The notes beneath the pieces were generated by a model, which was not told the origin of the DNA, made no database searches, and saw only the letters and a program-made list of their open reading frames with translations. Below, in pieces: positions 19,934 to 20,108 of a DNA stretch of 64,000 nucleotides. A program made the position numbers and the translations under genes. The first letter of the stretch is position 1. Each line of letters begins with the position of its first letter. The stretch lies in assembly GCF_003790525.1 (NCBI RefSeq), contig NZ_CP033633.1, one strand, 5' to 3'. The stretch is from Escherichia coli. Lineage in GTDB: Bacteria > Pseudomonadota > Gammaproteobacteria > Enterobacterales > Enterobacteriaceae.

Positions 19934-20108
19934 TCAGCCCTGTTTAAACCCCGGCTTGCCGTTTTTGGCTCGCCATTCCTTCACTTCTTTTACGATACCT
20001 TCAGGACTGTCCTCACGGTCATCCCTTGGATAATAAATAAGATCAGAACCATCAGGGTGTTCAGCTAATCGACGAAATTCATCCACTAATTTATCGTCAT
20101 CAGCCTCA
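19934..20108 (-). pseudogene. colicin/pyocin DNase-type immunity protein (Im-like), N-terminus cut by IS1
   Basis: Minus-strand translation ...[42 protein letters not shown] matches the conserved C-terminus of Im2/7/8/9-type proteins. Confidence 0.6.

Follow-up and report, generated by a model that had tools for sequence, protein, structure and literature searches.

A truncated Im2-like immunity gene ending at an IS1 copy beside the eitABCD operon on a mosaic Escherichia coli plasmid

The DNA analyzed here (the window) is a 64,000-nucleotide stretch of contig NZ_CP033633.1 from the Escherichia coli assembly GCF_003790525.1. It belongs to a mosaic plasmid close to pE16-3 (NZ_CP119729.1), which was found in a chicken and whose replicon is typed as IncK2/Z; the two sequences are collinear and 99.9% identical, except for two indels. 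The features relevant to the immunity gene, designated here imm, and the evidence on which they were assigned, are as follows:

18669–19856, plus strand: eitD, encoding an MFS transporter, the last gene of the GC-rich eitABCD iron-transport operon (annotations)
19859–19882, no strand assigned: hairpin with a perfect GC-rich 10-bp stem and the core GAGCGGGTAACAGCCCGCTC (RNA fold)
19934–20109, minus strand: imm remnant, the last part of an 85-aa Im2-like gene (translation, PDB, Pfam, alignment to pAPEC-O2-ColV, RefSeq pseudogene)
20110–20877, plus strand: IS1 copy A (IS1-A), IS1A-like, 768 bp (sequence, self-BLAST, RefSeq "IS1-like element IS1A family transposase")
20878–21072, plus strand: C-terminal remnant of a serine recombinase, residues 128–191 and the stop codon (identity to WP_038999265.1)
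21332–22195, minus strand: gene for an endonuclease/exonuclease/phosphatase (EEP) protein of 287 aa with a signal peptide
22362–23129, minus strand: IS1 copy B (IS1-B), inverted relative to copy A and 99.5% identical to it (self-BLAST)
31808–32575, strand not given: IS1 copy C (IS1-C; comparison with pE16-3)
32576–33482, minus strand: cba', the N-terminal ~293 codons of the colicin B gene (MSDNEGSVPTEGIDYGDTMVVW...), abutting IS1-C

Translation of the minus strand at 19934–20110 yields 58 letters of the DNase-colicin immunity type, exactly as given in the preliminary description of this DNA, which had recognized in them the C-terminal helices of an Im2/Im7/Im8/Im9-type protein. Since no NCBIfam model matches the immunity protein, Pfam and PDB were used for its assignment. 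A phmmer search of PDB with the fragment returned 28 sequences at E ≤ 0.001, the best being Im2 (2wpt_A, E 4e-30, query residues 2–58 against residues 30–86 of 86), with Im7, the pyocin S2 immunity protein, Im9 and Im8 ranking after it. The Pfam family Colicin_Pyocin (PF01320) was matched with an E value of 5.9e-26, at model positions 29–82 of 82 only. The comparison with colicin E and pyocin immunity proteins, on which the preliminary description had made its assignment depend, gave strong matches in both collections and places the fragment at helices II–IV.

The hallmarks of this family are the helix III hotspot [S/T]DLIYYP and a strictly conserved Glu in helix II, Glu30 of Im2 (PMC4548480). 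The remnant carries the hotspot as SDLIYYP, and its first intact codon is a Glu that aligns to Im2 residue 30. It is neither a complete four-helix ORF of ~85 aa with its own start, codons 1–28 being replaced by IS1, nor located directly 3' of a cognate HNH DNase bacteriocin gene. It is best regarded as a gene fragment that belongs to the Im2/Im7/Im8/Im9 family by descent and would not be a functional member. Compared with Im2 (PDB 2WPT_A, 2NO8, 3U43_A; PF01320), 49 of the 57 aligned residues (~86%) are identical, and both share SDLIYYP, the helix II Glu and the C-terminal ...NGK.GFKQG. Unlike Im2, the remnant has an equivalent of residues 30–86 only, helix I and loop 1 being absent. Several helix II positions differ from Im2 (DNKLVREFERLT), and thus the intact parent may have had a colicin specificity other than that of Im2.

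The remnant has its stop codon at 19934–19936, codons 29–85 intact at 19937–20107 (57 codons), and two nucleotides of codon 28 at 20108–20109. Its truncation point coincides with the left inverted repeat of IS1-A. The junction is therefore located exactly at the IS1 terminus, as had been described, with the first IS1 nucleotide at 20110 instead of 20109. The leading “P” of the 58 letters is read from a hybrid codon, IS1 supplying its first base; in the ancestral gene this codon is Thr28. Missing are the 28 N-terminal codons, comprising the start codon, helix I and loop 1; the earlier statement that about 30 N-terminal residues were replaced by IS1 was correct as to the replacement, and the count is now 28.

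On its left side the remnant, with a GC content of 42.5% vs 63–70% for eitD, converges on the eitABCD operon, named according to PMC3251573. The eitD gene is the constant neighbor of imm in all related plasmids, and none of the eitABCD papers found in literature searches mentions the immunity gene. The hairpin lies between the stop codons of the two convergent genes, that of eitD at 19856 and that of the remnant at 19934. The predicted RNA fold of the 86 nt at 19850–19935 has an energy of –29.5 kcal/mol (z = –4.2 vs shuffles). This hairpin is predicted to be a bidirectional terminator and was probably retained from the ancestral eit-imm junction.

The ancestral arrangement is found on ColV-type plasmids. 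pAPEC-O2-ColV (NC_007675.1) encodes an intact 85-aa “bacteriocin immunity protein” (WP_000412701.1), convergent to eitD, whose residues 29–85 are identical to the window fragment. The DNA sequences of the two imm copies differ at two synonymous positions and diverge exactly at the IS1 boundary. The gene, its position and its convergent orientation relative to eitD are the same in both plasmids, while the window copy lacks codons 1–28 together with a whole DNase remnant, and has IS1 and foreign DNA instead. In PLSDB, the public plasmid collection searched here, intact imm is present in 69 plasmids, pAPEC-O2-ColV and 68 others.

The DNase remnant is a 111-aa ORF (WP_011402682.1; L001, NC_007675.1, 7193–7528, minus strand) directly upstream of intact imm, annotated as “HNH endonuclease signature motif containing protein.” Its residues 28–109 align to residues 52–133 of the colicin E2 and E9 DNases (E 2.5e-28 for E2, 1.2e-27 for E9), and the HH...N...H...H motif is kept. 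It corresponds to the last ~84 codons of a colicin gene (WFRKALWMEVGKDPELL...HIEIHRGNK). Upstream of residue 28, where the similarity ends, the frame is closed and the DNA is IS91-family-associated sequence. ColE2-type small plasmids show 76–77% DNA similarity over imm and a further ~85 nt at the 3' end of the colicin gene; this similarity ends at the imm stop codon, indicating that no lysis gene remains. Since the colicin DNase is already cut by IS91-family DNA on ColV plasmids, the cognate toxin would have been lost before the arrival of IS1. The preliminary description had proposed either a remnant of a bacteriocin locus or an orphan immunity gene; both terms remain apt, with the refinement that even before IS1 the locus would have been a relic, an orphaned immunity gene next to a DNase that had lost its N-terminal part.

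All 69 PLSDB plasmids carry the DNase tail with 100% identity, and the next tblastn matches in this collection are intact colicins at 58–63%, with no intact toxin above 63% identity. Against colicin E2 the tail is only ~58% identical, vs ~86% for its immunity partner against Im2. The low identity to any intact colicin in PLSDB is one of the observations consistent with an origin outside colicin operons, in another polymorphic-toxin system with an HNH DNase/Im pair (T6SS, CDI, an Rhs cassette or an S-type pyocin). The sole NCBIfam match of the DNase remnant, the T6SS effector DNase NF047924 (E 5.2e-24, far below cut-off), points in the same direction, as do the 27 residues upstream of the DNase homology, which are not colicin-like. 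Such an origin is, however, very unlikely: the junction with IS91-family DNA accounts for the N-terminal residues that are not colicin-like, colicins E2 and E9 match the tail itself best, the immunity protein is ~86% identical to Im2, and the DNA similarity to ColE2-type imm runs on into the 3' end of the colicin gene.

For the colicin origin, an intact parent was sought in a collection of 5.8 billion proteins by a word-index search, which reaches close relatives only, and this search returned only fragments. The protein cluster of the DNase tail (P0002) occurs on 486 contigs, and the closest other match is a 67-aa Salmonella fragment, 76% identical. For the cognate bacteriocin, which the preliminary description had suggested looking for elsewhere on the replicon, PLSDB and the protein collection gave no intact parent; the DNase tail was found beside intact imm. 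The pair may be recombinant, or the source may be an E-group colicin not yet sampled. A tblastn search of the whole window with the HNH remnant of ColV plasmids as query revealed no DNase-colicin coding sequence (best E 1.9), in line with the earlier claim that no cognate nuclease is encoded there. No second Im-like sequence was detected in the window by tblastn; a weak Im-like match at 26364–26444 (E 0.03–0.06) is antisense to vapC and was dismissed as chance.

IS1-A has the characteristics of its family: a length of 768 bp, terminal inverted repeats (it starts with GGTGATGCTGCC and ends with GGAGTCATTACC) and insA (20165–20440) and insB (20359–20862) reading frames linked by the programmed insA/insB' frameshift, which is also noted in RefSeq. 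The three IS1 copies in the window are 99.3–99.5% identical. A 9-bp target duplication was sought at all three, and none was found; the flanks of IS1-A, CAGCCTCAG and CGAACTAAA, differ, and those of IS1-B, CGCGAATTA and CAGGGGGCC, likewise represent no target-site duplication. To look for a composite-transposon or inversion signature, all 9–12-bp flanks of the three copies were compared in both orientations, and no pair matches. The absence of a 9-bp duplication at IS1-A indicates an IS1-associated rearrangement rather than a simple insertion.

Exactly this imm'/IS1 junction recurs in 13 plasmids of PLSDB, which are 99.8–100% identical. Among 5,426 complete E. coli genomes it was found in 18, the majority of those listed coming from chickens. 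When the missing 5' part of imm together with the DNase tail was used as a query, 121 PLSDB records were found, 69 of them covering the full query; in the other records listed the match is confined to the first 49 nt of the query, corresponding to an O114-type junction. None of the 13 junction-carrying plasmids is among these 121 records, indicating that the missing DNA has been lost, not moved. IS1 copies are frequent misassembly sites, and the window contains three nearly identical ones; the junction could in principle be an artefact of assembly or the product of simple IS1 insertion, the rest of imm lying elsewhere in the replicon. The probability of this is close to nil, given the lack of overlap between the two sets of plasmids, the recovery of the junction with both flanks from 18 complete genomes and from 13 complete plasmids that were sequenced independently, and the lack of any other Im-like or HNH sequence in the window.

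On the right side of IS1-A, window positions 20878–21069 encode a sequence 100% identical to residues 128–191 of the 191-aa recombinase WP_038999265.1, confirming the earlier observation that the same IS1 truncates a recombinase gene. Only the helix-turn-helix (DNA-binding) tail is left, the catalytic domain being absent, and RefSeq labels it [quoted passage not shown] In NZ_AP027681.1 the recombinase is intact and adjoins the same EEP gene and the same IS1-B junction. The module at 20878–22361 is bracketed by the inverted copies IS1-A and IS1-B; its layout is composite-transposon-like, but without a target duplication. Its GC content is 31–41%, vs 42.5% for the imm remnant. Relatives of the module with 93–97% identity are present on plasmids of Vibrio tapetis, Photobacterium damselae and Vibrio parahaemolyticus, and the recombinase segment is 100% identical on a Proteus plasmid. 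Judged by GC content, the two sides of IS1-A are DNA from unrelated modules.

An intermediate, in which the 5' part of imm adjoins IS1, was sought in PLSDB and not found. An IS1-mediated deletion at IS1-A is plausible, and recombination between IS1 copies, or inversion and deletion, is as plausible as a single deletion event at this copy. The IS1-mediated deletion proposed in the preliminary description stands insofar as more than a simple insertion took place, the duplication being absent; as the sole route it does not, since recombination or inversion would also fit.

A cytochrome b562 segment located to the right of IS1-B (window 23130–24026) is inverted relative to L007 (NZ_CP116108.1, 19530–20426). 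In the ColV-type plasmid pDETEC66 the b562 segment lies ~12 kb from the intact imm gene. A single-step rearrangement model starting from pDETEC66 was tried and did not fit, the b562 segment being inverted and other pieces shuffled. The inverted orientation of this segment relative to ColV plasmids indicates a history more complex than one deletion, and it hints that IS1 mediated an inversion here.

A precedent for deletion is provided by the colicin B locus, 12 kb from the imm'/IS1-A junction. In pE16-3 an IS1 interrupts cba as a simple insertion and is flanked by a perfect duplication of 9 bp, AACTATTAC; the 3' part of cba is still present, as are cmi, cma and cbi. IS1-C of the window has the same right junction as in pE16-3, and 2,760 bp on the left are gone. 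It constitutes a clean, textbook case of adjacent deletion by IS1, in which the entire colicin M/B immunity-toxin cluster was removed. The two loci are alike in that an IS1 end abuts a truncated gene of a bacteriocin locus without target duplication. They differ in that the pre-deletion state of IS1-C is on record in pE16-3, whereas for IS1-A no intermediate was found and the right flank comes from an unrelated module.

As to expression, the in-frame reading upstream of the remnant extends 30 codons into IS1 without ATG, GTG or TTG and then meets a stop. The first possible start is a GTG at 20086, which opens a 50-aa ORF (19934–20086); the nearest GAGG is 17 nt upstream of it. A consensus scan for promoter-like sites on the minus strand, which provides weak evidence, revealed none, the only site being the inward promoter of IS1 itself. 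IS1 ends can create hybrid outward promoters. The remnant keeps all DNase-contact stretches, both the hotspot of helix III and the part of helix II that starts at the conserved Glu.

The remnant might still be expressed, either from the 50-aa GTG ORF or through IS1 read-out, and the resulting mini-immunity protein of three helices would bind DNase colicins with helices II and III and give partial protection. This would accord with the retention of the helix II Glu, the specificity helix II and SDLIYYP. It would also accord with the 57 codons being free of disabling mutations, with only the two synonymous changes relative to pAPEC-O2-ColV, and with the persistence of the same junction in 13 plasmids and 18 genomes. 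It is nevertheless highly improbable: IS1 provides no in-frame start, the GTG has no suitably spaced Shine-Dalgarno sequence, the minus strand shows no promoter-like site, and helix I, a part of the four-helix hydrophobic core, is absent. Few mutations are expected of a recent event, as suggested by the 99.8–100% identity of the plasmids, and the persistence of the junction is explained by the linkage to eitABCD. With the start codon, helix I, loop 1 and any promoter gone, the remnant can be considered a pseudogene; it is probably neither expressed nor functional, and most likely does nothing and is carried along with eitABCD. The identical sequence is entered in RefSeq (PGAP) as [quoted passage not shown] with a pseudogene flag; the remnant is thus ordinary and had been annotated before.

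Overall, the locus is very probably a non-functional pseudogene that retains the 3' two-thirds of an Im2-like gene for immunity to an E-group (HNH DNase) colicin, and we infer the following order of events. A ColE2-related colicin-immunity pair would have arrived beside eitABCD of ColV-type IncF plasmids. IS91-family DNA would then have cut the colicin gene, leaving its last ~84 codons; the lysis gene would have been lost, and the intact 85-aa orphan imm would have stayed. In the lineage of the window, a rearrangement associated with IS1 would subsequently have eliminated the DNase tail together with codons 1–28 of imm and joined the remainder, through IS1, to the truncated recombinase of a low-GC module unrelated to it. 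This could have happened by adjacent deletion, by recombination of two IS1 copies with each other, or by an inversion combined with a deletion.

At least two other, independent truncations of imm occur in related plasmids. In pK1516-2 the gene is cut at codon ~52 by an IS26 end (GGCACTGTTGCAAA; L008, CP049614.1, 2501–2609). In a large group of IncF plasmids a non-IS junction, the O114-type one mentioned above, replaces the first 14 codons, resulting in a 91-aa ORF (L004, NZ_CP024242.1, 4006–4281) that is still called “bacteriocin immunity protein” by PGAP and is present in ~50–60 plasmids according to PLSDB searches. These repeated, different truncations suggest that imm is not under strong selection on such plasmids and is dispensable.

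Two other features were noted elsewhere on these plasmids. The minus strand of the window at 24079–25665 contains a 528-aa ORF, a “hypothetical protein” in RefSeq, with ~98% DNA identity over 1,483 bp to nikB of the IncI1 type; it appears to be a relaxase fragment. In pE16-3 a group II intron (ltrA reverse transcriptase/maturase) resides in an IS3-family element (L006, 4708–6968). The intron is absent at the corresponding site of the window, and a 97% identical copy of the intron-bearing IS3 region is present at window positions ~57322–60880.

Orphan colicin immunity genes beside heavily truncated toxins on E. coli plasmids have been surveyed (PMC12546727), using >99% identity to immunity genes adjoining a cognate toxin as the criterion; only one DNase-type orphan was counted. 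The ancestral locus on ColV-type plasmids resembles these orphans: imm adjoins a bacteriocin gene of which little is left, and many plasmids share this truncation. Unlike them, the eit-linked Im2-like gene has no intact cognate on record; it may or may not be the DNase-type orphan of the survey. The window copy differs further, not being an intact orphan. It is possible, though rather doubtful, that the eit-linked Im2-like parent is a widespread, selectively maintained orphan immunity gene against a DNase colicin of the E group of which no intact copy has yet been sampled. If so, the window fragment would represent one of at least three independent losses of protection.

The remnant is one of several decayed remnants of bacteriocin loci on a mosaic, IS-rich plasmid of poultry E. 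coli, and is of little importance alone. Its junction with IS1 can serve as a marker of a plasmid sub-lineage, represented by the 13 plasmids and 18 genomes. Together with the neighboring cba/IS1 deletion, it would illustrate the progressive erosion of colicin loci by IS1. The intact parent gene on ColV plasmids may be of interest to research on orphan immunity, because its cognate DNase colicin is not on record.
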